From Spirochaetia bacterium (GTDB lineage Bacteria; Spirochaetota; Spirochaetia; DSM-2461): a DNA stretch of 64,000 bases. How positions within the stretch are numbered: position 1 is the stretch's first letter; each line of letters starts with the position of its first letter. The notes under the pieces are model-generated. The model was not told the origin of the DNA and searched no databases. It saw nothing but the letters and a program-made list of their open reading frames with translations. The DNA is taken from the NCBI GenBank assembly GCA_963668315.1, contig OY764216.1:1184001-1248000 (forward strand), written 5' to 3'. Positions 1-26,324 of this stretch are shown here, in pieces. A program made the position numbers and the translations under genes.

Positions 1-472
1 CACAGGGAGGGTAGTGGAGAAAAACGGTCGGAATAGGATGGTCCCTCAGATAATCATGGCTTTCTTTGTCCAGTCCCTCCATGAGAATGATGAATCCGTC
101 GACCTTGTTTCTGGATACCAGGCGGATGATGTTGTTGATTTTGCTGTGATTGCTGAGCTGGGTGAAGATAAGATCCATGTCCGCTTCTTCCAGCCGGCCC
201 CTCAGGCTGTTGAGGAGCATGCCGTGATAAACATTGACGTTGACCAGATGGTAATTTTCAGGCAGGACGATAGCTACCGTTCCTACCTGACTGGTTATCA
301 TGCTGCGGGCACCCGCGTTGAATTCAAAGCCCAGGTCACTGGCTATGCGGCTGATCTTCGTTCTTGTCTTCTCCGCCACCAGGGGGCTGTTGTTCAAGCT
401 CCTGGAAACGGTGGCGAAGCTGACTCCGGCGATTTCCGCGATATCCTTAATTGTAACCTGGCTGCTCATCAT
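1..472 (-). CDS. LacI-family transcriptional regulator (5' part; runs off the window start)
   Basis: Not in the ORF track. Manual minus-strand translation from ATG at 472 gives MMSSQVTIKDIAEIAGVSFATVSRSLNNSPLVAEKTRTKISRIASDLGFEFNAGARSM, a classic LacI HTH. Confidence 0.9.
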   Translation of the reverse strand, partial: MMSSQVTIKDIAEIAGVSFATVSRSLNNSPLVAEKTRTKISRIASDLGFEFNAGARSMITSQVGTVAIVLPENYHLVNVNVYHGMLLNSLRGRLEEADMDLIFTQLSNHSKINNIIRLVSRNKVDGFIILMEGLDKESHDYLRDHPIPTVFLHYPPC

Positions 473-482
473 ATTTACCGGT

Positions 483-1496
483 CTAGAATGTCAGCTGCCT
501 GCGGGATTCAAAGGATTCTTTGCACTTGTAGGCAATTTCCGAAACCCTGGTACCGTCATAGACGGAGACCCGGGGTTTCTTCCCGGTTAGAATACATGAC
601 ACGAATTCCTGAATCTCGTTGACGTAGGACGTTTCGAAACGCTCCAGGAAATTCTCGCTGCACTCCCGCCGGACTCCGCCCGAATCCAGTATCTCCACCA
701 GATTCTTCTGAGGCACCGACGCGATACGCAGGATCCCTTTGGTTCCGATGATTTCCGTCTCCACATTATAGCCGTGAGGCGCGGTTCTGCCGGCGAAAAG
801 AAAGGCCATGGCATCATTGTCGAACTGCATGAGGCAGGAGACATTGTCGCCGTCGCCGTATTCCCCGAACTCCGGATGGGCGTAGCAGCCGCCCATGGCC
901 GTTACCGACAGGGGTTCCGCCTTGAGAAACCAGCGGGCCAGATCTATATCATGGACCGCCATATCAAGAAACTGACCTCCCGAATGCCCCGCGAAAGCGA
1001 TGGCTCCGTCTATGAACTTTTCCGGGTCCTGGCTATAGGAGCGGAAGAGAATGGGTTTTCCTATCTCTCCCTTCTCCACTTTCTCGTGGGCATACATGTA
1101 GGACTCGTCGAAACGCCTCATGAACCCAAGCATAAAGACTTTATCCGGATGCGCTTCCACGGCTTTTTCCGCCTGCCGGCACTCTTCCACCGTCACGCCC
1201 AGGGGTTTTTCGGAGAAGACATGCTTCCCCGCAGCCAGGGCGGCGGCGATTTGCTTCGTGTGCAGTCCCGAGGGAGAGACAAGGCAGACGGCGTCAAGCT
1301 CATCAAGTTTCAGCATCTCTTCAAAGCTTGAGAAGCGGTGGGGAACACCCAGCCTGTCCGCCGTCTCGTTCAGAAGGCTTTCGTTAAGATCGCAGAGGGC
1401 AAAAAGCTCGGCGTTCATAATCTTTGTGGCGATGTTTTCGGCATGGGCCAGCCCAAGCCGTCCCAGACCGACAGAGCCGATTCTGATCTTATCCAT
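483..1496 (-). CDS. Gfo/Idh/MocA oxidoreductase, inositol dehydrogenase-like
   Basis: GLGRLG Rossmann motif, SEKP, GFMRRFD and DMAVHDID; next to a sugar ABC operon. Confidence 0.85.
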   Translation of the reverse strand: MDKIRIGSVGLGRLGLAHAENIATKIMNAELFALCDLNESLLNETADRLGVPHRFSSFEEMLKLDELDAVCLVSPSGLHTKQIAAALAAGKHVFSEKPLGVTVEECRQAEKAVEAHPDKVFMLGFMRRFDESYMYAHEKVEKGEIGKPILFRSYSQDPEKFIDGAIAFAGHSGGQFLDMAVHDIDLARWFLKAEPLSVTAMGGCYAHPEFGEYGDGDNVSCLMQFDNDAMAFLFAGRTAPHGYNVETEIIGTKGILRIASVPQKNLVEILDSGGVRRECSENFLERFETSYVNEIQEFVSCILTGKKPRVSVYDGTRVSEIAYKCKESFESRRQLTF

Positions 1497-1507: not shown

Positions 1508-2527
1508 TTAGTCTTTCTTGGCGTTCTTGCGCATATCGATGATAACGGCCACCACAATGATCACACCTTCGGTAACCTGCTGCCAGTAGGCGTCTACCCC
1601 AAGGAGGGTTAAGCCGTTTCTCATGACCGAGAGGACCAGAGCTCCGACGAAAGCGCCCCAGATGGTTCCGATACCGCCGGAGTGGCTTGTTCCGCCGATG
1701 GTAGTAGCGGCGATGGCGGTAAGTTCATAACCCGTGGCGGCACCGGGGTGAACCGAACCGACGCGGCCGGCGAAGACAACGGCGGCCAGACCGGCTAGAA
1801 GACCGGAATAGGCATAAATGGCGATCAGGTTGCGGCTTACATTAACGCCGGATACCTCGGCTGCCTTGATATTGCCGCCGATGGCGTAGACGCTTTTCCC
1901 GAACCGCGTCATATCCAGGAGGACATAACTGACTCCAATCATCACAAAGTAGATGACGACGGGAATGGGGAGGAAGCCGAACAGTTTGCCGCCCAGGGCC
2001 GTCATGGAGGGGATGAGCGTACTGACCGGTTTCCCGTCGGAGTAGATCAGGGCAAGACCGCGGGCCACGGTCATCATACCCAGGGTGGATATGAACGCGG
2101 GGATGTGTGTCTTGGCTATCAGGGCGCCGGATACGGCTCCGCAGAGGGCTCCTACCGCCAGGGCGGCCAGAATCGGTACGATCACGGGCATCTCCGCCAG
2201 GTTGGGGAAATATTTGCCCGTTGCATCGGCCGTCTGGGCCAGAGAGGCCGCGATAACGCCGGAAAAGGCCAGGACCGAACCGACGGAGAGGTCGATTCCC
2301 TTGGAAATGATGACGAAAGTCAGTCCCAGGGCCATAATCCCGAAAATAGACGACTGGGTCAGTACATTGAAAATGTTGGAACGGCTCAGAAAGGCCGGCT
2401 CCATGATGCTTATGCCGATTATCATTATCAGCAGGACGAATACGATTCCGTATTTCTGAAGGATCATTTTCGCCTTCCGGTTCTTATCCGCAAGGGCTTC
2501 CTTGTTATTAATGGCAGCTGTAGACAT
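1508..2527 (-). CDS. Sugar (inositol/ribose-type) ABC transporter permease
   Basis: Hydrophobic; GIDLSVGS, TRFGKSVYAIGGN and YELTAIAATTIGGTS motifs of the RbsC family. Confidence 0.92.
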   Translation of the reverse strand: MSTAAINNKEALADKNRKAKMILQKYGIVFVLLIMIIGISIMEPAFLSRSNIFNVLTQSSIFGIMALGLTFVIISKGIDLSVGSVLAFSGVIAASLAQTADATGKYFPNLAEMPVIVPILAALAVGALCGAVSGALIAKTHIPAFISTLGMMTVARGLALIYSDGKPVSTLIPSMTALGGKLFGFLPIPVVIYFVMIGVSYVLLDMTRFGKSVYAIGGNIKAAEVSGVNVSRNLIAIYAYSGLLAGLAAVVFAGRVGSVHPGAATGYELTAIAATTIGGTSHSGGIGTIWGAFVGALVLSVMRNGLTLLGVDAYWQQVTEGVIIVVAVIIDMRKNAKKD

Positions 2528-2530
2528 CTC

Positions 2531-4048
2531 TTAGTTCTCCTTTTCTACGGATTTACCAGTGGCGTAGGACATTAATTCTTCCTGGGTGAGATCGGGTCTG
2601 TTCTCTACGATACCCGTTACCCGGCCTTCGTGCATAATCATGATTCTGTCGCTCATTCCCATGACTTCCGGCAGTTCCGAGGAGATCATCACAATGGATT
2701 TTCCCTCTCCGGCGAGTCTGGTGATAAGCCGGTGGATTTCCGATTTGGCTCCCACATCGATTCCTCTGGTCGGCTCGTCAAGAAACAGAATATCCGGATT
2801 GGTCAGAAGCCACCGGGCGACCAGTACTTTCTGCTGGTTTCCGCCGGAAAGATTCTGGACTTTCTGCATCAGACTGGGGGTCTTCACCTGAATCTTGGTC
2901 ACGTAATCGTCGCAGTCCTTTTTGAGTATTTTGCTCTTGATCAGTCCCACCTTGTTCAGGTATTTGGGGATATTGGTAATAGCCATATTGAGCCTTACGG
3001 AAAGCATGGGGAAAATGCCCGACTGGCGCCTGTCTTCCGTCAGAAGGGCCATGTGCCTGGATATGGCGTCCCGGGGGCTCTTTATCTGCACTTCCTTACC
3101 GTCGATCAGGATCTCTCCGGAAACCTTGGGGCGGATACCGAAAATCGTTTCGATGACCTCCGTTCTCCCCGATCCGATAAGTCCTGCCACGCCGAGGATT
3201 TCTCCCTTTCTCACAGAGAAGGATACGTCCCTGAACAGGCGCTGATGGGTCAGATTCCGGACCTCCAGCTTGACTTCCCCGATCTCGCAGGGGACCTTGG
3301 GAAACATCTCATTTACATCCCTGCCCACCATCATGTTGATCAATTTGTCAACGCTCAGCTTATCCGTATCTTCCGAACCGATATAAGTTCCATCCCGGTA
3401 TACGGTGATCCGATCGGTGATCTCATAAACCTCATCGAGCTTATGGGAGATGTATATGATGCTTTTTCCCTGTTCCTTGAGCTTCCGCATGATGTTGAAA
3501 AGCTGTTTTACTTCTTTATCGGTCAATGCCGATGTAGGCTCGTCCATGATGATAAGTTTGGAATCATAGGACACGGCCTTGGCGATTTCTATCATCTGCA
3601 TCTTAGCCACAGTCAGGTCGGCCATTTCCGTTCTGGGGTCTTCGTTAAGATCGATTTCCTTGAGCACTTCGACGCTCATATCATACATTTTTTTATGATC
3701 GACAAATCCGAATTTGTTTACCGGTTCTCTTCCCAGCCATATGTTTTCCATGATGGGGCGATGAAGAACGGGGCTTAACTCCTGGTGTATCATGGAGATA
3801 CCCATGTTCAGGGCCTGGGAAGTATCATAACCCTCTCTAATTTCTCCATCATAGATTATCGTTCCCGATGTCTGACTGTGGACGCCGGCAAGACAGTTCA
3901 TCAGGGTTGACTTCCCTGCACCGTTCTCTCCCATTAGGGCGTGTATTTCTCCCGGGCGGACTTTAAGCTCAACCCCTTTGAGAGCCTTGACGCCTGGAAA
4001 ATTCTTTACGATGTCCTGCATCTGCAGGATATAGTTTTCCTCTGCCAT
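2531..4048 (-). CDS. Sugar ABC transporter ATP-binding protein (RbsA/MglA-type, two ATPase domains)
   Basis: GENGAGKST, DEPT, LSGGNQQK, DEPTRGIDVGAK. Confidence 0.95.
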   Translation of the reverse strand: MAEENYILQMQDIVKNFPGVKALKGVELKVRPGEIHALMGENGAGKSTLMNCLAGVHSQTSGTIIYDGEIREGYDTSQALNMGISMIHQELSPVLHRPIMENIWLGREPVNKFGFVDHKKMYDMSVEVLKEIDLNEDPRTEMADLTVAKMQMIEIAKAVSYDSKLIIMDEPTSALTDKEVKQLFNIMRKLKEQGKSIIYISHKLDEVYEITDRITVYRDGTYIGSEDTDKLSVDKLINMMVGRDVNEMFPKVPCEIGEVKLEVRNLTHQRLFRDVSFSVRKGEILGVAGLIGSGRTEVIETIFGIRPKVSGEILIDGKEVQIKSPRDAISRHMALLTEDRRQSGIFPMLSVRLNMAITNIPKYLNKVGLIKSKILKKDCDDYVTKIQVKTPSLMQKVQNLSGGNQQKVLVARWLLTNPDILFLDEPTRGIDVGAKSEIHRLITRLAGEGKSIVMISSELPEVMGMSDRIMIMHEGRVTGIVENRPDLTQEELMSYATGKSVEKEN

Positions 4049-4151
4049 ATTTACTCCGATTGGAGGGAAGGAGAGATTTCCCCTTCCCTGTACGAACTCC
4101 GCCCAGGATATTCCCGCCCTTTTCAGGCAGGGCAGGGCGGATGGTTATTGA

Positions 4152-5099
4152 TTACATGAAGTCTGCGAGATTTTCAGGTGTGATAAGAACGAAGGGAACC
4201 CATACGAGGGGAACAACTTCCTGACCCTGAAGAACCTTGTGGATAAGTTCGGCTGAACCTTTTCCCTGTCCCACAGCATCCTGCAGAACGGTGGCGGCAA
4301 GGGAACCGTTACCTACGGCTTCCTTGGCATCGGGAATGGCATCGACACCCATGACGGGAACGTCTTCACGACCGGCGGCTTTCAGGGCTTCTACGGCACC
4401 AAGGGCCATTTCGTCATTGTTGGCGCAGATACCTTTCAGATCATCGCCGTAAGCGGTAATCCAGTTTTCAGTGATGGTCATACCCTGGTCTCTCTGCCAG
4501 TTAGCTGTCTCTTTGGCGAGGATTTTAATTCCGGGGAACTTGGCTTTGGCGGTAACTTCGTTTCCTTCGGTTCTCTTCAGAGCGCCTTCGTTATCGAGTT
4601 TTCCCATGAGGATTCCCACTCCGCCTTTTCCGCCGAGCAGTTCGCCCATGTACTCCATCTGCTGCGTACCGGCAATAATTTCCTGGGAACCGACATAGTA
4701 GACATTTTTGGGAAGATCTTTTTCGGCATAGGGATTTCTATTGACGAAACAGAGGGGAACGCCGGCTTCATCGGCCGCTCTGACAATGGGGCCCATGGCG
4801 CTGGTGTCAACGGGGACGACGATGAGAGCGTCCACTCTCTGAGCCAGAAGGGTATTTACCAGATCCTGCTGGCGGATAACGTCTTCCAGAGCATCCTGCA
4901 GTACGATTTCCACATTGTCCACGGTAGAGAAATACTCTTCCGCCGCATCCATTACGTAAGTCTGAAATGTATCGTTGAAATTATTACATACATAACCGAC
5001 TTTAAAGCTGTCCTTTGCTCCGTCACCATCTCCTGATCCGTTGGCGAAGAGTGCCGCTGCTGCTAGCAGTGAGAATAGAACGAGCCATACCTTTTTCAT
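4152..5099 (-). CDS. Sugar ABC transporter substrate-binding protein (probably inositol)
   Basis: Signal peptide, periplasmic-binding-protein motifs (ANNDEMALGA, ATVLQD); first gene of the ABC operon. Confidence 0.88.
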   Translation of the reverse strand: MKKVWLVLFSLLAAAALFANGSGDGDGAKDSFKVGYVCNNFNDTFQTYVMDAAEEYFSTVDNVEIVLQDALEDVIRQQDLVNTLLAQRVDALIVVPVDTSAMGPIVRAADEAGVPLCFVNRNPYAEKDLPKNVYYVGSQEIIAGTQQMEYMGELLGGKGGVGILMGKLDNEGALKRTEGNEVTAKAKFPGIKILAKETANWQRDQGMTITENWITAYGDDLKGICANNDEMALGAVEALKAAGREDVPVMGVDAIPDAKEAVGNGSLAATVLQDAVGQGKGSAELIHKVLQGQEVVPLVWVPFVLITPENLADFM

Positions 5100-5136
5100 A
5101 AATTAACCTCCAATGATTCGTTTGCTCCTTGAATTA

Positions 5137-5152
5137 TTGCAAACGTTTTCAA
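5137..5152. promoter_or_regulatory. LacI-type operator palindrome just downstream of the ABC operon promoter
   Basis: TTGCAAACGTTTTCAA has the central CG typical of LacI sites. A second copy, TTACAAACGTTTACAT, lies at 5339-5354. Confidence 0.7.
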
Positions 5153-5159
5153 TAAAATT

Positions 5160-5189
5160 ATTATCATCCCAGTTTTGTGATACTGTCAA
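5160..5189 (-). promoter_or_regulatory. Sigma70-like promoter of the sugar ABC operon
   Basis: Minus strand TTGACA-N18-GATAAT. Confidence 0.55.
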
Positions 5190-5375
5190 TGAGAAAGTTT
5201 ATAAAAAAGAAGCATAGTGGAATATAATGTTATATAGTAATGAAATGCGTAATTCTCAGTCTATCAGACAATAAGACAGAAAACGGCCTATTGTGTAAAA
5301 AAGACAATTGTTTAATATAGATAAAAAAAGATCGATTATTACAAACGTTTACATGCAATAATACTGTTTTAATTA

Positions 5376-5423
5376 TAAAAAAGAAACCGCACCGGAAAGT
5401 TGGATAAGGTCCGGTGCGGTTTC
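5376..5423 (-). terminator. Rho-independent terminator of the transaldolase/ALDH/carboxyltransferase operon
   Basis: 14-bp stem GAAACCGCACCGGA / TCCGGTGCGGTTTC followed by a U-run on the minus strand. Confidence 0.8.
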
Positions 5424-5455: not shown

Positions 5456-5602
5456 CTACTTCTTCCTGCTGATCCAGAGAGAAGCATCGGCATAAATACC
5501 GGGAGTTTTGTCTACGGATGCATCGCGTGACTCGATTTCTCTTTTAAGGCGACTGCTTTTTCTGACCAGTCTTCGTTCTCTGCTTTTTCTCAAATTCATC
5601 AT
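5456..5602 (-). CDS. Small basic protein (48 aa) coupled to the carboxyltransferase; possible epsilon-like accessory subunit
   Basis: Manual translation MMNLRKSRERRLVRKSSRLKREIESRDASVDKTPGIYADASLWISRKK. Its ATG overlaps the upstream stop (ATGA), and it ends just before the terminator. Confidence 0.45.
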   Translation of the reverse strand: MMNLRKSRERRLVRKSSRLKREIESRDASVDKTPGIYADASLWISRKK

Positions 5603-7194
5603 AATGGTATGTTCCCGTGTTTTTTGGCAGGTCTCTCCTCCTGCTTTTCCGCGATCATTTCCAGGGATCTGATCAATTCCTTCCGTGCCGCCTCCGGGGC
5701 GATCACATCATCCACGATGCCAAGGGAGGCTGAAGAGAAGGGATTCATGAATTTTCTCTGGTATTCATGCATCTTGATCTCTTTAATCAGGTTTGAGTCC
5801 TTGGCCGACTGTATTTCATTCCTGAATATGATATTCGCCGCTCCCGAAGCGCCCATTACGGCAATCTCCGCAATCGGCAGGGTCAGCACTCTGTCATAGC
5901 CCAGCGCCCTTGAAGCCATCCCAATATAGGCGCCTCCATAGGCTTTCCTCAGGACCAGGGCGATTTTGGGAACCGTGGCTTCCGCTATGGCGTAGAGGAG
6001 TTTGGCCCCGTGGCGAATAATGCCCCCGTGCTCCTGTTCCGTGCCCGGCATATATCCGGGTACATCCACAAGGGATATGACCGGAATGGAAAAGGCGTCG
6101 CAAAAGCGGATAAACCGGGCCGCCTTGTCGGAAGAGTCCTTATCCAGCGCTCCGGCGTATACCTTCGGCTGATTTCCAATGATGCCCACCGATCGACCCG
6201 CGAGCCGGGCAAATCCGACCACCATGCTGCGGGCGAAATCCCTGTGGACTTCCAGAAAGCTTTCCCTGTCAAAAAGGAGTGAAATGATCTCCCTTATGTC
6301 ATAGGATTTCGTGGACTCCCCGGGTATGATATTCAGAATATCTCCCGTTTCCCTGTTGGGATCGTCGGTGCATTCCACCCGGGGCGGCGCTTCCCTGTTG
6401 GAAGAGGGAAGATAGGAGAGCAGCCTGGTTACCGTGGCGAAGCACTCCTCCTCGCTGGCGCAGTGGAAATGAACGTTGCCGCTCAGGCTGCTGTGAGCCA
6501 TGGCTCCGCCCAGGTCCTCGTGGCTGACTTCTTCTCCCGTTACGGCCTTGATAACGTCCGGACCGGTAATGTACATATGGCTCGTTTTATCCACCATGAA
6601 GACAAAATCGGTCAGAGCAGGCGAATAAGCCGCTCCCCCGGCGCAGGGCCCCATAATCAGGCTGATCTGGGGAATGACACCGGAGGCAAGAATATTCCCC
6701 CGGAATATGTTCCCGTAACCTTCCAGGGACATGACTCCTTCCTGGATACGGGCCCCTCCCGAATCGTTTATCTGAATGAAGGGCCTGCCCGTTTTCAGCG
6801 CCATTTTCTGGGTGGACGCGATCTTGGAGGCATGCTGTTCGCCCAGGGACCCGCCCAGAACGGTAAAGTCCTGGGAGGAGAGCCAGATCTGGCGTCCGCC
6901 GAGTAGGGCACTGCCCGTGATTACCCCGTCTCCGGAAATCTTTTTGCTGTCCATTCCGAAGTCGTCGATACGGCTCATCTCGTAGGGATGATTTTCCACG
7001 AAACTGCCTTCGTCGGTGAGGAGCTGAATCCTCTCCCGGGCTGTGTGCTTTCCCTTTGAACGCTGTCTGGCCTGACGGTCCTCGCCGCCCCCGGCCAGCA
7101 TGGAAGAGCGCATCTTATCCAGAAGCTTAAGGCTCTCCCTGTGGCTATAGGGCAGTTCGGGCGTACTATCAGTTGCCTTTTCTAACTTGCTCAT
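5599..7194 (-). CDS. Acyl-CoA carboxyltransferase subunit (PccB/MmdA family)
   Basis: DFTVLGGSLGE, DSGGARIQEG, GPCAGGAAY, DVPGYMPG, RKAYGGAY, KKHGNIPL. Start placed at ATG 7194, which has a GAGGA RBS. Confidence 0.93.
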   Translation of the reverse strand: MSKLEKATDSTPELPYSHRESLKLLDKMRSSMLAGGGEDRQARQRSKGKHTARERIQLLTDEGSFVENHPYEMSRIDDFGMDSKKISGDGVITGSALLGGRQIWLSSQDFTVLGGSLGEQHASKIASTQKMALKTGRPFIQINDSGGARIQEGVMSLEGYGNIFRGNILASGVIPQISLIMGPCAGGAAYSPALTDFVFMVDKTSHMYITGPDVIKAVTGEEVSHEDLGGAMAHSSLSGNVHFHCASEEECFATVTRLLSYLPSSNREAPPRVECTDDPNRETGDILNIIPGESTKSYDIREIISLLFDRESFLEVHRDFARSMVVGFARLAGRSVGIIGNQPKVYAGALDKDSSDKAARFIRFCDAFSIPVISLVDVPGYMPGTEQEHGGIIRHGAKLLYAIAEATVPKIALVLRKAYGGAYIGMASRALGYDRVLTLPIAEIAVMGASGAANIIFRNEIQSAKDSNLIKEIKMHEYQRKFMNPFSSASLGIVDDVIAPEAARKELIRSLEMIAEKQEERPAKKHGNIPL

Positions 7195-8551
7195 CGAATA
7201 ATTCCTCATCTGAGGGCTGCCGGCTGGCAATCGGGGAGGAGACCCAGGTCGTATTGAGCAGATGTTTCCAAGTAATATTTTCGCTGGCTATGTTACCGCC
7301 CCAGGTTCCGCAACCCAGAGTCAGAGTGGTGGGCATTCCGTTTGTCCAGGCACCGCTGTTAGCAAGGCACTGGGGCTGGTTGACCATGACCCGGGATACC
7401 TTGACCTGTTCTGCGACGGCCAGAATCCTTTCTTGCTTGCTGGTGTGGATACCGCAGGAGTGACCGGCTCCGGAATAAGCCGTAATATCGTTCACCAACT
7501 GAATGGCATCCTCGAATTTATTCCACTTGTAAAGCGTTGTCACCACGGAAAGCTTTTCTCCGGAGAAGGGATAGTCGGCGCCGGTTCCCGTCTCTTCCAC
7601 TGCCAGGAAACAGCAGCCTTCGGGGATCTCGATCCCGGCGATTCCGGCAATTTTGGCGGCAGGCTGGGCTACCACGTTTCTATTGAGAGTATGGCCGTCG
7701 GGCCACAGAGCCTTCTGGAGTTTTGCTTTCTCTTCGCTGCTGCAGACATAGCCGCCTTCCGCCGTGATAGCTTTGATGAAGTCGTCATAGATCACATCCT
7801 GGACAACGCAGGCGTTCTCAGCGGAACAGCTCGTCGCCTGGTCAAAGGTCTTGGATCTTCTGATTTTATCGGCTACCACAGCCATGTCCTGGGTGTCGTC
7901 CACGATGGTGACGGCATTTCCCGCTCCTACGCCGTAGGCAGGGGTACCGCTGGAGTAGGCCGCCTTAACGAGACCGCCGCCTCCCGTCGCCAGGATCAGA
8001 TCGCACTGCTCCATGACCGCCTGGGAGTTTTCCATGGAAACTTCGTCCACGCTGATAACGAGATCGGCGGGGAAACCGGCTTTTTCAATCACCCCGCGGA
8101 TCTTATCCACGACGAGCTTGTTGGTCTTTTTGGTGCGGGGATGGGGGCACATGATAATCGCGTTTCTGGTTTTCAGGGCATTCATGGCCTTGAGAACGGG
8201 AGTCGCTTCGCAGTTGGTACAGGGAATAAGGGCTCCGATGACGCCGATGGGCTTGGCTATTTTGATAAGGCCGAGGGCTTCGTTTTCTTCGATAATACCC
8301 ACGGATTTCTGTCCTTTCATATCAAACCAGCCGCCTCTGACTTTATTCATCATTTTGGCGTATTTGCTGGGAACATCACCCATGTTGGATTCCTCTACGG
8401 CAAACTCGGCCAGGCTCTGGGCAAAATCTTCCTGAATGGCGGCCCAGGCAATCCTCTGGCAGAGATCGTCCACCTGTTCCTGGGTGGCAAACTCAATTTT
8501 CTTCTGAGCCTCTTTGGCTCTTTTCATTAATCCGCTAACATAATCTGACAT
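7169..8551 (-). CDS. CoA-acylating aldehyde dehydrogenase (SauS/AdhE-ALDH-like)
   Basis: KPIGVIGALIPCTN, ATGGGGLVKAAYSSG, GVGAGN, catalytic Cys in ATSCSAEN, GEKLS, GAGHSCGIHT, TLGCGTWGGN. Confidence 0.88.
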   Translation of the reverse strand: MSDYVSGLMKRAKEAQKKIEFATQEQVDDLCQRIAWAAIQEDFAQSLAEFAVEESNMGDVPSKYAKMMNKVRGGWFDMKGQKSVGIIEENEALGLIKIAKPIGVIGALIPCTNCEATPVLKAMNALKTRNAIIMCPHPRTKKTNKLVVDKIRGVIEKAGFPADLVISVDEVSMENSQAVMEQCDLILATGGGGLVKAAYSSGTPAYGVGAGNAVTIVDDTQDMAVVADKIRRSKTFDQATSCSAENACVVQDVIYDDFIKAITAEGGYVCSSEEKAKLQKALWPDGHTLNRNVVAQPAAKIAGIAGIEIPEGCCFLAVEETGTGADYPFSGEKLSVVTTLYKWNKFEDAIQLVNDITAYSGAGHSCGIHTSKQERILAVAEQVKVSRVMVNQPQCLANSGAWTNGMPTTLTLGCGTWGGNIASENITWKHLLNTTWVSSPIASRQPSDEELFDEQVRKGN

Positions 8552-8571
8552 AGCTTCAATCTCCTCTTATC

Positions 8572-9648
8572 TTATTTGTCAGGATTGGGGATCATCAGAT
8601 CCCGTACGATGCCCACGAGCTCATGGTATCCGGCGATAAATCCCCGCAGGGTCCGGGCTGTGGCTCCGTATTGTTCGAACTCTTCGGGCTTCATGCCGTC
8701 CGGTTCATAGGCTCTTGTGAAGTCGGGGAACTTTTTATGGAGTTCCTCCAGGATGGCGGGATCGACGGGGTCGTCGATGGTGACTTTTACATCCACATCG
8801 CTTCCGTTGTATCTTTTCTGCCACTTGTAGGGAATGGTCTGTACGATATCGTCGCCGACGAGCTGGGACCAGTGAAGGTGATTTCTGTAGGCGGCTACGA
8901 GAAGACGGGTGCGGTATCCCTTTTCTTTATAAAGTCTGTAGGCGTTCTTGAAGGCGGCGACTCCGGCCCAATCCAGAGTGCCGGGATTGGTTATGATGTT
9001 TTCCTTCTCGGCGATAACCCTGAGCCAGTCGTCGAGGCGTCCCACCATGATCGTACATACGGGAATCATGTTGGACGTATCCTTGCCCTCCGCTTCCCTT
9101 CTTTTCAGACCGTTTTCAACGGCTTCGGCCACGGCCATAGCCTGGGGAACGGTAAAACAAACGGTAGCATTGATATTCACGCCCCGGTAGGTTGCCTCTT
9201 CGAAGGCTTTGATACCGGCGGCGGTGGTGGGCATTTTCACCATCATGTTGGGAGCCAGGGTGCTGAACTGTTCCGCCTGGTCGGCCATGGCGGCGGCGTT
9301 GCGGTAAAGCTGGGCGTTCGTCTGAATGGAAATCCGGCCCTTGAGGCCTTTTTCTTTATCGAAAACGGGTTTGAGAACTCCCGCTCCCTTTACAGCCATC
9401 TCTTCGATAAGCTTCCAGGCAATCTCTTCTTCTCCCGCTTCGGGCATCTCCTTGATGATTTCCTTGATGCGTCCTTCCCACTGGGGCATTTCCTTTTTAA
9501 GAACATTAAGAACGATAACGGGATTTGTCGTGGCGCCCGTGGCTCCATGGCTAATAGCGTATTCCAGCTCTTCCACAGAACAGGAATCATTCCACACTTC
9601 CATATCGCATATGGAAACAGATTTTTTTATTGGACTCATATCACCCAT
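8572..9648 (-). CDS. Transaldolase-family protein
   Basis: WND, GATTNP, Schiff-base Lys in VKMP, NATVCF, VGRLDDW. Confidence 0.85.
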   Translation of the reverse strand: MGDMSPIKKSVSICDMEVWNDSCSVEELEYAISHGATGATTNPVIVLNVLKKEMPQWEGRIKEIIKEMPEAGEEEIAWKLIEEMAVKGAGVLKPVFDKEKGLKGRISIQTNAQLYRNAAAMADQAEQFSTLAPNMMVKMPTTAAGIKAFEEATYRGVNINATVCFTVPQAMAVAEAVENGLKRREAEGKDTSNMIPVCTIMVGRLDDWLRVIAEKENIITNPGTLDWAGVAAFKNAYRLYKEKGYRTRLLVAAYRNHLHWSQLVGDDIVQTIPYKWQKRYNGSDVDVKVTIDDPVDPAILEELHKKFPDFTRAYEPDGMKPEEFEQYGATARTLRGFIAGYHELVGIVRDLMIPNPDK

Positions 9649-9698
9649 GATTAACTCCTCGTAAATATATTAAAGTCTTGGACCGATTGTCTAATTGT

Positions 9699-9727
9699 AT
9701 GATAATAGGAAAAAATGATTTTGTAAA
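9699..9727 (-). promoter_or_regulatory. Sigma70-like promoter of the transaldolase operon, overlapped by an operator-like motif (9687-9704)
   Basis: Minus strand TTTACA-N17-TATCAT. The motif TTGTCTAATTGTATGATA overlaps the -10 element. Confidence 0.5.
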
Positions 9728-9809: not shown

Positions 9810-10190
9810 TTATTTTTTTCTGGCTATGACTTCAATTTCCACGAGAACATCTTTGGGGAGCCGGGCCACTTCCACGGCGGCTCTGGCGGGGTAGGGGGCT
9901 TCAAAAAAAGCACCGTAAACCTCATTCATCGCGGCGAAGGTATTCATATCCTTGAGAAATACCGTCGCTTTGAGAACGTCGGCCATGGTGCATCCCGCTT
10001 CTTCGAGAACGGCTCTGACATTTTTCAGGGAGCGTTCCGTCTGAACGGCTATATCTTCGCCGGCCAGGGCTCCCGTTTCGGGATCAAAGGGAATCTGTCC
10101 TGAGACAAAAACCAGGTCTCCCGATACGGTTCCCTGGGAATAGGGTCCGATGGCTCCGGGGGCGTTCTTTGTGGTAATAGCTTCTTTCAT
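9810..10190 (-). CDS. ridA: RidA (YjgF/YER057c/UK114) enamine/imine deaminase
   Basis: APGAIGPYSQG, SGQIP, PARAAVEVARLPKDVLVEIE. Start at 10190 behind a GGAGGA RBS. Confidence 0.9.
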   Translation of the reverse strand: MKEAITTKNAPGAIGPYSQGTVSGDLVFVSGQIPFDPETGALAGEDIAVQTERSLKNVRAVLEEAGCTMADVLKATVFLKDMNTFAAMNEVYGAFFEAPYPARAAVEVARLPKDVLVEIEVIARKK

Positions 10191-10360
10191 TCTGTTATCC
10201 TCCATTGATATCTTGTTGTGAACATTTTACTGCCCTTTTGGCGGCAGCGGGTATTAAATACATAATACTAACATATTTCCCTGTTTTTTAACCATATCAT
10301 AATGGTCCTGTATTAGGGTGGGCACAAGAGCGTCATAGACTGACGGCTCCGGGAGGTCCT

Positions 10361-11489: not shown

Positions 11490-11846
11490 TTGATGAATAC
11501 TTGGAATATCAGGGAAAGGTGTCTGGAGTTTTCTGTTAGGATTGTCAAATTGGGATTTGCTCTGCAGAAAAAAGGCGGCATCTGCTTTATTTTTGCTGAT
11601 CAGATTGTAAAATCTGGAACATCTGTTGGAGCGAATCTCGAAGAGGCTCAGGGAGGTCAGAGTCGAAGAGATTTCATTGCCAAAATGTCCATTTCTCATA
11701 AAGAATCCCTGGAAACGGTCTATTGGCTGAAATTATTAATCAAAGCTGAGATCATGAAATCTGAAGAAATCTTCCCTCTTCTAAAAGAAGCCAATGAAAT
11801 TACCTCAATCTTAACAGCTATACTCAGGTCAACAAAAAAACATTAA
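11490..11846 (+). CDS. Four helix bundle protein (23S rRNA IVS protein / TIGR02436-like)
   Basis: QIVKSGTSVGANLEEAQGGQSRRDFIAKMSISHKESLETVYWL is the family signature. Low GC. Confidence 0.92.
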   Translation: MMNTWNIRERCLEFSVRIVKLGFALQKKGGICFIFADQIVKSGTSVGANLEEAQGGQSRRDFIAKMSISHKESLETVYWLKLLIKAEIMKSEEIFPLLKEANEITSILTAILRSTKKH

Positions 11847-21258: not shown

Positions 21259-22290
21259 TTAAGAACCGCAGCTCTCTCTTATCACTAAAGTCGGCTGGAG
21301 TTTTACATCCTTCGTTATGCCGCTTTTCCCGGAATTTATCCTATCCAGCAAATGCCGGCAGGCCAGCTGGGTCATCTGCTCGAGCGGCTGATGTACGGTC
21401 GTGAGACGAGGTTTGAAATAGGTGCTGAGTTCTATATCGTCAAATCCGACCAGGGCGATATCCTGGGGGATGCGGATGGATAATTCCATGAAAGCCTCCC
21501 TGGCACCCAGGGCAACCATGTCGTTCTGGGCGAACAGGGCCGTGGCTTTTCGGAAAATTTCTCTGTGGTTCATCACCCCGTCATAACCGGACTGAAAATA
21601 ACACCCCCCTTCCCGGATTATCAGTGATTCATCAATCTCCCTATCGTAGAAATGGTGGGCCGTCCTGTAGCCTTCCGTCCTCAGTTTATACTCCTGCCCT
21701 TCGTATTCTTCCGTGGTTATGGTGGCTATTTTTCTGTGGCCCCTTTTCAAAAGATGCTCCGTTGCCAGATAGCCACCGCGAAGATGGTCGGTATAGACTT
21801 TGTCCACCCCTTCGAAGTCGGGATCGTCGGGATAATGATGGAGAAAGACATAGGGGATTCGGGAGGATTTCAAAAACAGCTTCGTATCGGAGGAGAGGGT
21901 CGTACAGGCGATAAGCAATCCATCAACTTTCTTCCCGATAATGAGTTTTTTGATATTACTGGCATCGGAAAAGCGGTTGTTGGCAAACGCGACAATCAGG
22001 TCCATATTCTCCTTTTCAAGGCTTTTCTGCAGCTGGCCGTGAAAGGTACTGAAATAGAGGTTGGAGCTGTAATCCATAAAGTCATTGGGATAGATTATGC
22101 CGATGGTGTTGGAGCGGTTGGTGATCAGGCTCCTGGCGCTGGCGTTGAATTCAAAACCCTGTTCTCCGGCGATTTTTAAAATCCTGTCCTTGGTGGATTG
22201 AGAGATCAGGGGACTGTCATTCAGGCTACGGGAAACGGTAGACTGGCTTACCCCGGCCAGCAGGGCCAGGTCTTTTGTCGTTATGGACAA
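21259..22290 (-). CDS. LacI-family transcriptional regulator
   Basis: TTKDLALLAGVSQSTVSRSLN HTH; IALVGFDD, LTTVHQP. TTG start. Confidence 0.93.
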   Translation of the reverse strand: MSITTKDLALLAGVSQSTVSRSLNDSPLISQSTKDRILKIAGEQGFEFNASARSLITNRSNTIGIIYPNDFMDYSSNLYFSTFHGQLQKSLEKENMDLIVAFANNRFSDASNIKKLIIGKKVDGLLIACTTLSSDTKLFLKSSRIPYVFLHHYPDDPDFEGVDKVYTDHLRGGYLATEHLLKRGHRKIATITTEEYEGQEYKLRTEGYRTAHHFYDREIDESLIIREGGCYFQSGYDGVMNHREIFRKATALFAQNDMVALGAREAFMELSIRIPQDIALVGFDDIELSTYFKPRLTTVHQPLEQMTQLACRHLLDRINSGKSGITKDVKLQPTLVIRESCGS

Positions 22291-22360
22291 TTTGAAGGAC
22301 TCCGGTTCTTTTTGTATTTACGATAGCATCTTTATTCATAATAATCCATCATATAAAGAA

Positions 22361-22376
22361 ATGCAACCGTATGCAT
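22361..22376. promoter_or_regulatory. LacI-type operator
   Basis: ATGCAACCGTATGCAT, matching the site at 22506-22521 at 15/16. Confidence 0.7.
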
Positions 22377-22503
22377 AGTCTCGTATTTGCGACGGGATAG
22401 TCAAAATATCCCGGAATATTTCAGATGATTGCTTTCTTTGGATGAAATAACAGCTGGAAAAAGCTTTACAGTTTAAAAAAAACGGCTTATGATGCAAAAA
22501 GTG

Positions 22504-22523
22504 CAATGCAAGCGTATGCATTG
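22504..22523. promoter_or_regulatory. LacI-type operator upstream of the iol operon
   Basis: CAATGCAAGCGTATGCATTG palindrome between the divergent LacI and iol genes. Confidence 0.75.
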
Positions 22524-22552
22524 AGAAAGTTTACGATTGTAAGGAGTCCGGG

Positions 22553-23380
22553 ATGAGGGAGGAAAGAGTAAAGTTCGCCTTGAATCATATGGTTTGTCCC
22601 CGTTTTTCATTCAAAGAGTTCTGTCATGTCGCCGTTGCCCTGGGATTAGAGGCTGTCGAATATCGTAATGATGTGGGATTTCACAGCATTGATAGTCATG
22701 AAAAGGCAAGGGAAGCGGGCACAGCCGCAAAAGATGCCGGTCTTAAGGTTCTGACGATAAATGCCCTCTCTCGTTTTAACCTCTGGGACGAAATCCGGGC
22801 GGAAGAGGCGGAAAAACTTGCCCTCCTGGCCAAAGAAGCCGGGGCTCATGCTCTGGTTCTGTGTCCCCATGTCGATGTGGAGGATGAGTCAGAGTCGAGT
22901 GAGGACGAGAGAGCTGCCGGTCTGGAGAGGGCCCTGTCCGGTCTGTCCCCCATCCTTGGGGCCCACGGGCTGAAGGGCTTCATTGAAGTGCTCGGCTTTC
23001 CTGTCTCAACCTTACGTTTTAAAAAAGATGCGGCGGCGGCAATAAGGAATGGGGGATATGAGGGCCGATTTTCTCTGCTCCATGACACCTTCCATCATAA
23101 AGGTTCGGGAGAGAAGGAATTTTATCCCGATTTGACGGGGTTGGTTCATATCTCTGGAGTGGAAGAACCGGCAGTTGGGTTTGAAGAGATGCAGGACTCC
23201 CACAGAATCCTTATCGGACCAAAGGACAGGCTGGATAACATCGGACAGATGAGGGAGTTATGCGAAAAGGGATATCAGGGATATTTCTCCTTTGAGCCCT
23301 TTTCCGAACCTGTCTGGAAATTGAAAGATCACGCCGAGGCTGTCAGGGAGAGTATACAGTATATTCTCGGGCGGCTTTAA
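22553..23380 (+). CDS. Xylose-isomerase-like TIM barrel protein (IolI-like inosose isomerase)
   Basis: VEYRND, TINAL, ALVLCP, HDTFHH, LVHISGV, SFEPFS; iol context. Confidence 0.75.
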   Translation: MREERVKFALNHMVCPRFSFKEFCHVAVALGLEAVEYRNDVGFHSIDSHEKAREAGTAAKDAGLKVLTINALSRFNLWDEIRAEEAEKLALLAKEAGAHALVLCPHVDVEDESESSEDERAAGLERALSGLSPILGAHGLKGFIEVLGFPVSTLRFKKDAAAAIRNGGYEGRFSLLHDTFHHKGSGEKEFYPDLTGLVHISGVEEPAVGFEEMQDSHRILIGPKDRLDNIGQMRELCEKGYQGYFSFEPFSEPVWKLKDHAEAVRESIQYILGRL

Positions 23381-23404
23381 TCCCAAAAAAGAGGAGAAGG
23401 ACTA

Positions 23405-24418
23405 ATGGAAAAGGAATTGAGAGTCGGACTTATCGGCACTGGTGCCATAGGGAAAACCCATATAGAGAGAATCAACAATAAATTGCAGGGCGCCAGGGTT
23501 GTCGCCGCAGCCGATGTCCATGGGGAGTACGGAAAGAAGGTCGCCGCCGATTACGGGCTTATGCCTTTTGACTCTCCCGAGGAACTGATCAATTCGGCCG
23601 ATGTGGATGCGGTCGTCGTCTGCACGGCCGATGAGCATCATGAACGGCTGGCTGTCGCTGCTATTAAAGCGGGAAAGTATGTTTTCTGTGAAAAGCCCCT
23701 GGCCCCTACCGCCGCCGGAGCGAAGAATGTGGTTGATGCGGAGATCGCCGGGGGAAAACAGCTTGTTCAGGTCGGATTCATGAGGCGCTATGATCCCGGT
23801 TACGTCCAGCTGAAAGAGATCATCGACAGCGGTCAGATCGGCGATCCCCTTATGCTGCACTGCGCCCACAGAAATCCCGATATCCCCGAGTCGATTAGCT
23901 GGGATGATTCCATGGCGGTGGAAAACTCCATGATTCACGAAATCGATGTGCTCCGCTGGCTACTCGGAGAGGATTATGAGACGGCGGAAGTCGTATTTCC
24001 CAGAAAAACGAAGAACGCCGGGGAATATCACGATCCCCAGATTATGATACTGACGACAAAATCGGGAGTACGCATTGATGTGGAATCCTTCGTAAACTGC
24101 CGTTATGCCTACGATATCCAGTGCGAAGTCGTCTGCGAGGAGGGCGTCGTTCGCTTACCCGAACCCAATAATGCCTCCATCCGCACCAACGCTTCCGTTG
24201 TGAACCCCATCTGCAAAAGCTGGTCCGAGCGGTTTGTCGACGCTTACAACCTGGAATTCCAGGCATGGATTAATGCCTGTAAAGAAGGGATCGTGGACGG
24301 GCCGACGGCCTGGGACGGGTATGTCGCCGCCATAACGGCCACTGCCGCTTCCAGAGCCCGTGTCGCTCAGAAAAAGGTTACGATTGATATGGAACAGAAG
24401 CCGGGATTTTACAAGTAG
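23405..24418 (+). CDS. iolG: myo-inositol 2-dehydrogenase (Bacillus IolG type)
   Basis: GLIGTGAIGKTHIERINNKLQGA, CEKPL, QVGFMRRYD, HCAHRNP, HEID, GPTAWDGY. Confidence 0.88.
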   Translation: MEKELRVGLIGTGAIGKTHIERINNKLQGARVVAAADVHGEYGKKVAADYGLMPFDSPEELINSADVDAVVVCTADEHHERLAVAAIKAGKYVFCEKPLAPTAAGAKNVVDAEIAGGKQLVQVGFMRRYDPGYVQLKEIIDSGQIGDPLMLHCAHRNPDIPESISWDDSMAVENSMIHEIDVLRWLLGEDYETAEVVFPRKTKNAGEYHDPQIMILTTKSGVRIDVESFVNCRYAYDIQCEVVCEEGVVRLPEPNNASIRTNASVVNPICKSWSERFVDAYNLEFQAWINACKEGIVDGPTAWDGYVAAITATAASRARVAQKKVTIDMEQKPGFYK

Positions 24419-24430
24419 GAGTATCAGGTA

Positions 24431-25372
24431 ATGGTATTGGCAACATGCACAGATGTTTTCGGCGATCTCTCCTATCCGGCTATGCTGGATAAGGTGAAAT
24501 CTTACGGCATAGATTATGTGGAAATGACTGCCGGGGGGTGGTCTCCCTGTCCCCATGTGAAAACGGCGGAGCTTCTGAATGATGAAGATAAGCTCAAGGC
24601 CTTCAAGGCGGAACTGGAAAAGAGGGATATGAAAATCGCCGCGCTGAATTGCTCGGGAAATCCCCTTATCGATACGGATATGGGAAAACATCACGCCGAG
24701 ACGGCCCGACAGACGATAGCACTGGCCGAGAAACTGGGCGTGGAAAAAATTGTGATGATGTCCGGTCTTCCCGGCGGCGCTCCGGGGGATATAACGCCCA
24801 ACTGGATTACCACGACCGTTTCCTGGCCGGATTATATGGCGGAAACCGTCCGATACCAGTGGGAAGACGTGGCTATCCCCTGGTGGAAGGAGTTCGTAAA
24901 GTATGCCGATGACCACGGGGTAAGGCAGATCGCCCTGGAGGAGTTTCCCCTGCAGCTTGTCTATAACACGGAGACCCTTATGAGGCTAAGAGACGCGGTC
25001 GGTCCTAAAATCGGCATGAATCTGGATCCCTCCCACCTTATAGCCATGGGAGCCGATCCTATCGCCGCCGCCCGGGCGACGGGAGACGCCATCTACCATA
25101 TTCACGGCAAGGACGCCCGTATCGAAAGGGGCCTGTGCGATGTAAACGGGCTTATGGAGACCAAACCGGTAACCGATAGGGCCAGCAGAACCTGGAACTA
25201 CGTGGCCGTGGGATGCGGGCAGGGGCTTCAGTGGTGGAAAGAGTTTTTCTCCGTGGTAAGGATGTGCGGATACAACGGGGTTGTCTCCCTGGAGATGGAG
25301 GATCTTACCATGAGCGTGGAAGCGGGCATGCGGACTTCCGTGGACGCCCTCCGGCAGACAATCAGTTTATAA
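24431..25372 (+). CDS. Sugar phosphate isomerase/epimerase (AP endonuclease 2 TIM barrel), iol cluster
   Basis: ALNCSGNPL, MMSGLPGG, NLDPSHL, HIHGKD, SLEMED. Confidence 0.82.
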   Translation: MVLATCTDVFGDLSYPAMLDKVKSYGIDYVEMTAGGWSPCPHVKTAELLNDEDKLKAFKAELEKRDMKIAALNCSGNPLIDTDMGKHHAETARQTIALAEKLGVEKIVMMSGLPGGAPGDITPNWITTTVSWPDYMAETVRYQWEDVAIPWWKEFVKYADDHGVRQIALEEFPLQLVYNTETLMRLRDAVGPKIGMNLDPSHLIAMGADPIAAARATGDAIYHIHGKDARIERGLCDVNGLMETKPVTDRASRTWNYVAVGCGQGLQWWKEFFSVVRMCGYNGVVSLEMEDLTMSVEAGMRTSVDALRQTISL

Positions 25373-25427
25373 TTGACGCCCTTCCCGGAATATTAACCGG
25401 AGAAGGATATATCTTGGGAGGTATAAT

Positions 25428-26324
25428 ATGAAGATAGCCTTTGATGTGGATGTTCTCGCCAGAGCCATGAATATTAACGATATGGTCCATCAGGTGGCCG
25501 ACTGGGGATACAAATACATCGAACAATCTCCCCATCCGCGGATTAATCCCTTTTACAAGCATCCTCTCTTTTCCCGGGAGACGGAGGCGGAATACAGGAA
25601 AGCCCTGAAGGATACCGGAGTGGAACTCTCCTCCTTTATTGTGGTTTACCGGTGGTCGGGGCCTACGGAACTTCAGAGGGAACATGCCGTGGCCAACTGG
25701 AAGAGAATCCTGGAGATAGCCGATTCCATGGGCGTGCGGGTCATTAATACGGAGCTGTCCGGCGATCCCCATCAGCAGGAGATCTGCAACGGTATGTGGT
25801 TCCGTTCCATGGAGGAGCTCCTCCCCCTGTTTGAGAAGTACGATATCCGGGTGGAGATTCAGTCCCATCCTTACGATTTCTGCGAACTGAACAACGAGAC
25901 CTGCGATATGGTCAAATCTTTCCGGTCCGACTATGTGAAATATGTCTATTCCGCTTCCCATGGATTTTTCTATGACGAAGGGTTAGGGGATGTGAAGAGT
26001 ATGCTCAAATATGCCGGGGACGATCTCTCCCACGTGCTTATTGCGGACACCTACAATCAAACACCCAAAGCCGGTGCCGGATTGAGGTATATCCTGAATC
26101 CTCCCGGAGTGGATGCCACTATTCATCAGCATACGCCCATGGGATTCGGGGACGTGGATTTCGAGGGGATTTTTGAAACCCTGCGCGACATGGATTTCGC
26201 CAACAGACAGTTCAAGGCTGGAGGGGATGCCATTGTCTGCGTTTCCTATTTCGGGTATCCCGAACTAATGGCCAAGGAGGCTCCGGCCGCCAGGGAGCGG
26301 ATCGAGAGGGAGTTGCTGGGGTAG
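25428..26324 (+). CDS. iolH: IolH-like sugar isomerase/epimerase
   Basis: ADWGYKYIEQSPH, PFYKHP, HPYDF, RYILNPPG, HQH; last gene of the iol operon. Confidence 0.75.
   Translation: MKIAFDVDVLARAMNINDMVHQVADWGYKYIEQSPHPRINPFYKHPLFSRETEAEYRKALKDTGVELSSFIVVYRWSGPTELQREHAVANWKRILEIADSMGVRVINTELSGDPHQQEICNGMWFRSMEELLPLFEKYDIRVEIQSHPYDFCELNNETCDMVKSFRSDYVKYVYSASHGFFYDEGLGDVKSMLKYAGDDLSHVLIADTYNQTPKAGAGLRYILNPPGVDATIHQHTPMGFGDVDFEGIFETLRDMDFANRQFKAGGDAIVCVSYFGYPELMAKEAPAARERIERELLG

Follow-up and report, generated by a model that had tools for sequence, protein, structure and literature searches.

A four-gene operon that may complete an inositol pathway was analysed in a 64,000-nucleotide stretch of the genome of a Spirochaetia bacterium (contig OY764216.1, positions 1,184,001 to 1,248,000; this whole stretch is called the window, and its positions are used as coordinates). 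The operon codes for a transaldolase-fold enzyme, a coenzyme A (CoA)-acylating aldehyde dehydrogenase, an acyl-CoA carboxyltransferase and a small peptide, all on the minus strand. With a probability of about 60%, we propose that it provides the lower half of the inositol pathway through cleavage of an unphosphorylated intermediate, malonyl-CoA and acetyl-CoA. Gene content, linkage to inositol (iol) genes, a shared upstream motif and a residue pattern are the observations from which we infer all activities. Most likely we are dealing with a conserved, co-regulated module that replaces IolC, IolJ and IolA. Such a replacement had been suggested in an earlier note made from the letters of this DNA alone; its outline stood, while exclusion of IolC, independence of ATP and sodium coupling in this genome were too strongly put. 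The four open reading frames (ORFs) and the terminator described there were found in their place and in the families named:

8572..9648, minus strand: transaldolase-fold class I enzyme, 358 aa, PF00923
7169..8551, minus strand: CoA-acylating aldehyde dehydrogenase (SauS/SucD/AdhE-ALDH type), 460 aa, PF00171
5599..7194, minus strand: acyl-CoA carboxyltransferase (PccB/MmdA/12S type), about 531 aa, PF01039
5456..5602, minus strand: small basic ORF, likely an accessory peptide, 48 aa, with an ATGA overlap with the carboxyltransferase stop
5377..5423, minus strand: terminator-like hairpin closing the operon (14-bp stem, 13-nt loop, T-run), read from the sequence
9694..9727, minus strand: promoter-like site TTTACA-17-TATCAT with the overlapping 14-base motif TATTATCATACAAT, from a promoter scan and a motif search

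The longest ORF of the carboxyltransferase covers 5599-7230; the likelier start is the ATG at 7194, which has a ribosome-binding site and agrees with the start in the related locus L019. The promoter-like site itself spans 9699-9727. The 13-nt loop of the hairpin at 5377-5423 could not be listed by the automated hairpin scan, which covered loops of up to 8 nt.

The genome is a single contig of 5.6 Mb with 97% completeness, and homologues put the organism with the spirochaetes. IolG, IolE and IolD exceeded their cut-offs in the profile search, IolB was recognized by PF04962 and position, and they form one cluster with the operon. Genome-wide, no protein reached the cut-off of IolC (best 116 of 300 bits) or IolA (best 166 of 448 bits); the best candidates, a KDG kinase, a ribokinase-like protein and a succinic-semialdehyde-type dehydrogenase, are all located outside the cluster. 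The profile search of the genome revealed no DUF2090 aldolase, the aldolase of the known IolC-DUF2090 variant (PMC9007349), and no IolJ-like gene, the sole class II aldolase being of the glycolytic type. When the IolC, IolJ-like and IolA proteins of relatives were used as queries, only matches of 23-32% identity were obtained. The pattern expected by the earlier note, iolB, iolD and iolE without iolC, iolJ and iolA, holds therefore beyond the window for the whole genome, and due to the lack of IolC, IolJ-like, IolA and DUF2090 proteins no known route leads on from the IolB product in this genome. Compared to the canonical pathway (IolG, E, D, B, C, J, A; Bacillus subtilis), the upper part is the same and the same end products (triose phosphate, acetyl-CoA, CO2) are predicted, but the route would contain malonyl-CoA and no kinase, phosphorylated intermediate, class II or DUF2090 aldolase or decarboxylating IolA.

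In the proposed mechanism Lys138 of the first enzyme would take the dihydroxyacetone unit from 5-dehydro-2-deoxy-D-gluconate with release of malonate semialdehyde, and would most likely pass it to glyceraldehyde 3-phosphate, giving fructose 6-phosphate; we regard this step as probable. The acylating dehydrogenase would oxidise malonate semialdehyde to malonyl-CoA without decarboxylation, which we hold with slightly greater confidence, and the carboxyltransferase would convert malonyl-CoA to acetyl-CoA, a net decarboxylation considered as probable as the first step. Fructose 6-phosphate could be phosphorylated by a pyrophosphate (PPi)-dependent phosphofructokinase, saving the ATP that IolC would use. 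Since the product of the transfer still needs phosphorylation, this saving is possible but not automatic: the genome has a PPi-dependent phosphofructokinase over the cut-off and ATP-type enzymes as well, and the cleavage without spending ATP that had been suggested applies only if the former is used.

For comparison 331 Spirochaetia genomes were surveyed. The transaldolase-fold enzyme had matches at E 1e-40 or better in 82 of them; the 72 genomes at E 1e-70 or better were kept as carriers of a close transaldolase and the 10 weaker ones were dropped. The thresholds were 280 bits or more for IolC, 400 bits or more for IolA and E 1e-105 or better for the acylating dehydrogenase. Counts are reported and not P values, because related genomes are not independent. 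iolD was present in 73 genomes, 38 of the 72 with a close transaldolase against 35 of the 259 without it, and in family f1 all 13 genomes with the transaldolase also have iolD. Among the 38 genomes with both genes, 24 carry the acylating dehydrogenase only, 11 IolA only, two both and one neither, which supports that the acylating dehydrogenase replaces IolA almost one-for-one. The transaldolase gene lies within 15 kb of iolD in 24 of these 38 (many of the others are fragmented), within 1 kb of IolA in nine and of the acylating dehydrogenase in 15, never of both. In iolD-negative genomes, too, its neighbour was IolA/MmsA over the cut-off in all five that were scanned (L081, L083, L086, L087, L088). 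Since the neighbours are IolA/MMSDH or the acylating dehydrogenase, we regard malonate semialdehyde, or a compound closely resembling it, as the very likely product of the transaldolase. Out of 17 full-length homologous loci five had iolB, iolD or iolE neighbours, and two had the full trio without such neighbours.

The dehydrogenase offers the strongest argument for the substrate. Its best NCBIfam match is SauS (NF047625; 523 bits, below the cut-off of 600) and its closest structure is a succinate-semialdehyde dehydrogenase (8CEI); the alignment with 8CEI revealed the AlDH20 signature, that is the catalytic Cys and the repurposed His as in 8CEK, whose role in AlDH20 acylating dehydrogenases has been described (PMC12041015). 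SauS is likewise an acylating dehydrogenase for a small anionic aldehyde (PMC10413351), but the partner here is a carboxyltransferase, not a CoA ligase: the neighbours are the transaldolase and the carboxyltransferase, and no sulfoacetate-CoA ligase, the partner of SauS, stands beside the dehydrogenase. Malonyl-CoA reductases of the archaeal GapDH-superfamily and Chloroflexus types also interconvert malonyl-CoA and malonate semialdehyde; they belong, however, to other protein families and work in the reductive direction during CO2 fixation, and the accessible text of the same paper (PMC12041015) names no AlDH20-family enzyme for this interconversion.

The genomic surroundings of the dehydrogenase are of two kinds. 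It directly follows iolBDEG in genomes without the transaldolase (L073, L074, L079). In the clostridial class represented by genome G331 it was found in 8 of 349 scored genomes at 10 loci, comprising three iol operons (L152, L154 and L156), one pyrimidine operon (L157, with an aminotransferase, dihydropyrimidinase and PreA) and six that are neither; two of the iol operons carry the transaldolase and no iolC, and one carries iolC and an iolJ-like gene. Furthermore, 20 spirochaete loci were fetched around dehydrogenase or carboxyltransferase genes, and five of them (L090-L093, L097) combine the dehydrogenase with a class III aminotransferase, an NCS2 permease and a full carboxyltransferase-delta-biotin carrier-beta set; PreA exceeded the cut-off in L090 and L097. 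Malonate semialdehyde is the one aldehyde that inositol and pyrimidine breakdown have in common, and for this reason it is the likely substrate of the dehydrogenase, with malonyl-CoA as predicted product. In a quick tree, built with duplicated rows and no SauS outgroup, the inositol- and pyrimidine-linked members intermix.

Dehydrogenase-carboxyltransferase pairs were also detected in other surroundings. In L094, L095 and L096 they stand beside a DeoR regulator and a long CysK-like pyridoxal-phosphate enzyme. In genome G166 a second copy of the pair (L104:4093-11680) is preceded by genes for two GlcD-like FAD oxidoreductases and for an Fe-S subunit, an arrangement that might serve the oxidation of 3-hydroxypropionate.

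The 358-aa first enzyme is below all NCBIfam transaldolase cut-offs (TIGR00875, 46 of 246 bits), nevertheless its structure model (pLDDT 96.9) is a transaldolase barrel with a TM score of 0.83 to the Corynebacterium transaldolase 3R5E. The residues Asp21, Asn42, Gln109, Lys138, Thr162, Met201, Arg204 and Arg255 do not vary among the sequences compared (162 of 162). With E. coli TalB, 3R5E and fructose-6-phosphate aldolase (FSA) it shares the barrel, the Schiff-base Lys, the Asp, Asn and Thr, and two anion-binding Arg residues; equivalents of Asp17, Asn35, Thr156 and Arg181 of TalB are present, and the Schiff-base residue of TalB is Lys132 (the other TalB numbers were partly taken from PDB titles). 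Gln109 and Met201, however, align with the Glu and Phe of solved transaldolases, to which the identity is 19-23%, so that the Glu96 acid-base residue with Phe178 of TalB is not kept; the TalB E96Q variant scored above wild-type TalB in both searches with the enzyme. FSA, an enzyme of about 220 residues, pairs Gln59 with Tyr131, and residue swaps interconvert FSA and transaldolase activity (PMC13259622); here the Gln is found without the Tyr, in 358 residues. Since Gln/Met matches neither the Glu/Phe of transaldolases nor the Gln/Tyr of FSA, the enzyme was assigned to neither. The fold and Lys138 thus bear out the transaldolase of the earlier note, and its identity as a standard transaldolase does not stand. 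With Gln109 and Met201 at the acid-base positions the sequence is compatible with transfer as well as with free aldol cleavage. The subfamily is large and unannotated, with at least 8000 members (8000 of 8000 scored candidates).

The IolB product, 5-dehydro-2-deoxy-D-gluconate, is by our own chemical reasoning 5-deoxy-D-fructuronate, an analogue of fructose 6-phosphate. We take it to have a free C1 hydroxyl and the 3S,4R centres of a transaldolase donor, the carboxylate replacing the phosphate of fructose 6-phosphate. It is likely that the enzyme cleaves this compound in unphosphorylated form, and as no Dak1 kinase was found in the genome, transfer to glyceraldehyde 3-phosphate is favoured. 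The sulfoglycolytic transaldolase SF-TAL (8BC3) likewise combines the transaldolase fold with an unphosphorylated anionic ketose, as predicted here, but it has 226 residues and matches our enzyme only at E 6e-8; no sulfoquinovose genes were seen in the neighbourhood of the operon, to which this search was confined (the flanks hold iol, RidA and glycosyltransferase genes).

The carboxyltransferase is an Mmd-type alpha subunit (PF01039) whose best NCBIfam match, mmdA, reached 724 bits, below the cut-off of 999, and it is the sole copy of its type in the genome. A role as acetyl-CoA carboxylase subunit for fatty acid synthesis was ruled out, as a complete accB-accC-accD-accA set is found in the fab cluster. 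In an ungapped alignment Ile occupies the PccB-422 position in all 44 carboxyltransferase rows examined, and Ile at this site permits the use of acetyl-CoA (PMC7835884). The protein is therefore predicted, and likely, to decarboxylate malonyl-CoA. It belongs to the same family as the Na+-translocating methylmalonyl-CoA and malonate decarboxylases (MmdA-D-C-B, Mad) and the transcarboxylase 12S subunit, but would be fed by an aldehyde dehydrogenase and not by succinate or malonate activation, and while relatives have the full delta/biotin carrier/beta set, this operon has only the carboxyltransferase and the small peptide. In genomes G047 and G167 the transaldolase, dehydrogenase, carboxyltransferase, biotin carrier and beta stand together as a complete pump version. 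The 48-aa ORF had no match in Pfam or the ESM Atlas, and as a remnant of a delta subunit it was rejected (hhalign probability 0.5%). Its conserved C-terminal PGxYxDAxxW motif argues for a real peptide; an ORF of this kind follows the carboxyltransferase in five of the seven closest loci (L019, L110, L111, L112 and L114, not L113 and L115), a position that suggests an accessory, epsilon-like subunit.

Within 5.6 Mb there are two occurrences of the 14-base motif TATTATCATACAAT, one over the -10 box of the operon and one before the gntR gene of the iol cluster, and its variant TTATCAGACAAT precedes iolB. A related motif stands before iolB in six of the seven close trio-bearing clusters, and in relatives also before the transaldolase gene, gntR and iolB. 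A relaxed 12-mer gave 8 matches in the genome, three of them at the operon, gntR and iolB starts, and 63 matches over 47 chosen loci against a shuffle mean of 1.6, a count in which palindromes are entered twice, two loci overlap and the pattern itself was derived from transaldolase promoters, so that only the iolB and gntR sites are independent. The motif is likely an operator of FadR/GntR type. The same FadR-type motif was seen before the dehydrogenase or carboxyltransferase gene in pyrimidine clusters (L090:8653 and 11549; L091:12029; L092:9465). The other features of the region are as follows:

5136..5354, minus strand: two LacI-type palindromes (5136-5153, 5337-5354) and a promoter-like TTGACA-18-GATAAT, preceding the ABC/iolG unit
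1508..5099, minus strand: sugar ABC importer (binding protein, ATPase, permease), likely for inositol
483..1496, minus strand: IolG inositol 2-dehydrogenase (TIGR04380, 368 bits against a cut-off of 355)
1..472, minus strand: start of a lacI-family regulator gene; the cluster runs on beyond the window
G000:C1:1178448-1183370, just left of the window: iolB, iolD, iolE and a convergent FadR-type gntR (GntR/FCD)
21259..26324, no strand assigned: second cluster with lacI, three AP_endonuc_2 barrels and an IolG-like dehydrogenase below the cut-off

A LacI operator shared with the trio was sought and not found: the only two LacI-type palindromes of the genome both lie before the ABC unit. We infer that LacI controls uptake and oxidation and that GntR connects iolBDE with the trio. 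Owing to its own promoter-like site and terminator the operon is a transcription unit separate from the ABC/iol genes; it does lie directly upstream of the ABC/dehydrogenase/LacI cluster, as had been stated, but not in one continuous unit with it. The second iol-type cluster mentioned in the earlier note is real, with its three AP_endonuc_2 barrels and IolG-like gene at 22553-26324, and likely serves other inositol isomers; its orthologues (51-83%) sit within the iolB/D/E cluster in L072. On the other side of the operon there are a RidA-family deaminase gene (9810-10205) with its own terminator-like hairpin and a gene of the four-helix '23S rRNA IVP' family (11490-11846), neither of which was seen beside the trio in relatives.

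Several observations weigh against the proposed pathway. The first enzyme lacks both known acid-base residues, the Glu of transaldolases and the Tyr of FSA. The upstream motif overlaps the -10 hexamer and is of a common FadR type, besides its derivation from transaldolase promoters, and the survey counts come from related genomes. Mutual exclusion of the transaldolase and IolC, which the earlier note had expected, was tested and not found: IolC occurs in 15 of the 38 iolD-positive genomes with the transaldolase and in 7 of the 35 without it, and the transaldolase is sometimes clustered with iolC and an iolJ-like gene (L033, L117). The linkage of the trio to iol genes is conserved but not exclusive, as 34 of the 72 genomes with the transaldolase have no iolD; the family has therefore further substrates. 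Among the 35 iolD-positive genomes without the transaldolase, 28 also lack IolC and DUF2090, consequently unrecognised routes exist which could operate here as well. Weaker transaldolase matches were detected in 14 of these 35, none near the listed iolD positions, and DUF2090 as a hidden aldolase was ruled out, since it was found in 0 of 51 iolD-positive genomes without IolC. Enzymes with Ile-422 are promiscuous (PMC7835884), and genes for a delta subunit, a biotin carrier and a beta subunit are absent from the operon. The beta subunit of oxaloacetate decarboxylase (OAD) turned up in all 21 of the family genomes that were searched, whether they carry the trio or not.

The carboxyl acceptor is the weakest link of the pathway in this genome. 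Of the Na+-pumping decarboxylase considered in the earlier note only the carboxyltransferase is present as a dedicated subunit; dedicated delta, biotin carrier and beta subunits are missing from the whole genome, where only OadG/A/B and AccB were found. The biotin domain of the OadG/A/B complex might accept the carboxyl group, which would permit Na+ pumping; we tentatively favour it over AccB or biotin-free decarboxylation, at somewhat less than even odds. As there is no dedicated pump set and the beta subunit is present whatever the trio status, Na+ coupling in this genome is conjectural. The best surviving alternative is one in which the first two steps hold and the carboxyltransferase is an uncoupled overflow decarboxylase, biotin-free or acting via AccB, with part of the malonyl-CoA going to fatty acids and no ion gradient. 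It is a serious possibility, though not the favoured one, and this estimate concerns the last step only, most of its content being shared with our proposal. It is in line with the missing pump partners, which are absent from the loci of genus g2 too, with clostridial-class iol operons that have the dehydrogenase and no carboxyltransferase nearby, and with a weak similarity to subunits of biotin-independent malonate decarboxylases. Nevertheless, every one of the closest structures is a biotin-dependent carboxyltransferase, the two GG motifs of the oxyanion holes are conserved, and relatives sharing 61-64% identity belong to complete Na+ pumps.

An improbable variant of the same pathway starts with an aldolase that frees dihydroxyacetone; the FSA-type enzyme of the genome would then join this to glyceraldehyde 3-phosphate. 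A Gln in place of Glu96 is typical of FSA (PMC13259622), and the other PF00923 gene of the genome (L037:1492-2157; G000:C1:43233-43898) shows the FSA-type Gln/Tyr pattern with fructose-6-phosphate aldolase as best score. The Tyr that drives Schiff-base hydrolysis in FSA is, however, Met in 162 of 162 sequences, the genome has no Dak1, and in the annotated loci, where the scan covered a part of the unlabelled ORFs, no gene next to it could be recognised as a triose kinase.

Still less probable is a different ketose acid as the substrate of the enzyme, for example fructuronate or 5-ketogluconate (yielding tartronate semialdehyde), with an unrecognised kinase or transketolase handling 5-dehydro-2-deoxy-D-gluconate. 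Homologues do occur in Thermotoga-type clusters with IolN over the cut-off (L022, L143) and in iolD-free loci, the enzyme coexists with IolC, and a split transketolase stands beside iol genes in L070. Against this, the genome has no close homologue of IolN or IolM (best 27-29%) and none of IolO, the kinases of the PfkB family lie elsewhere in it and were scored as KDG kinase or ribokinase-like, and the shared motif links the operon to iolB. That the operon has nothing to do with inositol, and serves either the pentose phosphate pathway with a housekeeping transaldolase or sulfonate metabolism with a genuine SauS, is very unlikely. In its favour, the genome search gave no canonical Glu/Phe transaldolase and SauS is the best family match of the dehydrogenase, but 15 of 28 other family-f1 genomes have no match to the transaldolase-fold enzyme at all, the SauS cut-off was missed and the ligase partner (PMC10413351) is not beside the dehydrogenase, the carboxyltransferase would have no role on sulfoacetyl-CoA, and the linkage to iol genes is conserved in two phyla.

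Other arrangements were noticed among the iol loci. In L143:2708-12342 and L139:520-7045 the dehydrogenase, carboxyltransferase and transaldolase occur in this different order in Thermotoga-type inositol clusters with IolO-/IolM-like genes (IolN is over the cut-off in L143); one may speculate that a hydroxylated donor is converted there through tartronate semialdehyde and tartronyl-CoA to glycolyl-CoA. The split transketolase of L070 (15283-17099) is directly upstream of the iol operon in a genome without IolC and without the transaldolase, and is a candidate for another kinase-free ending. In L075:12459-16062 and L078:2270-5883 a type II (archaeal-like) GAPDH, PGK and a LarA-family racemase stand beside iolG/D/E in genomes without IolC, IolA and the transaldolase; the GAPDH is over the cut-off (families were scanned in L075 only). 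A second iol cluster of G271 (L107:4390-10021) contains iolC, the acylating dehydrogenase (51%), a split transketolase, a succinate-CoA-transferase-like gene and an HMG-CoA-lyase-like gene.

In the main texts of the open-access literature (CC-licensed PMC, bioRxiv) we found neither a transaldolase nor malonyl-CoA described as part of inositol breakdown. Known variants keep the kinase, with IolJ, DUF2090 (PMC9007349) or an FBA-like aldolase, and dispose of 3-oxopropionate by IolA, by a CoA transferase or by a dehydrogenase complex that has been proposed. The anaerobes Anaerostipes rhamnosivorans (PMC8355322) and Dysosmobacter welbionis (PMC13311982) likewise handle 3-oxopropionate without IolA, but they use the 6-phosphate and an FBA-type aldolase, after which a CoA transferase or, as a proposal, an oxoacid dehydrogenase complex takes over; the words 'malonyl' and 'transaldolase' are absent from the main texts of both papers. 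A bolder view of the module, unlikely in its entirety, would see an energy-saving pathway with three new activities: a third catalytic class of transaldolases (Gln/Met) transferring dihydroxyacetone from a ketose acid, a malonyl-CoA-forming AlDH20 dehydrogenase and a malonyl-CoA carboxyltransferase for Na+ export, with an own pump in some relatives and a borrowed oxaloacetate decarboxylase here, the module also serving pyrimidine breakdown and, in IolN clusters, perhaps running a tartronyl-CoA to glycolyl-CoA route.

Inositol, a substrate derived from plants, is abundant, and IolC counts as a core gene in surveys (PMC9430895). It should be emphasized that 51 of the 73 iolD-positive spirochaete genomes in our sample lack IolC, therefore genome-based predictions of inositol use miss or misjudge such genomes. 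The locus offers testable candidates for the missing lower-pathway step and would give a function to a large unannotated transaldolase subfamily with an unusual catalytic pattern. An ATP-free malonyl-CoA-forming dehydrogenase would, if true, be of interest to metabolic engineers, and the module suggests how fermenters could regain energy from the decarboxylation that IolA dissipates.

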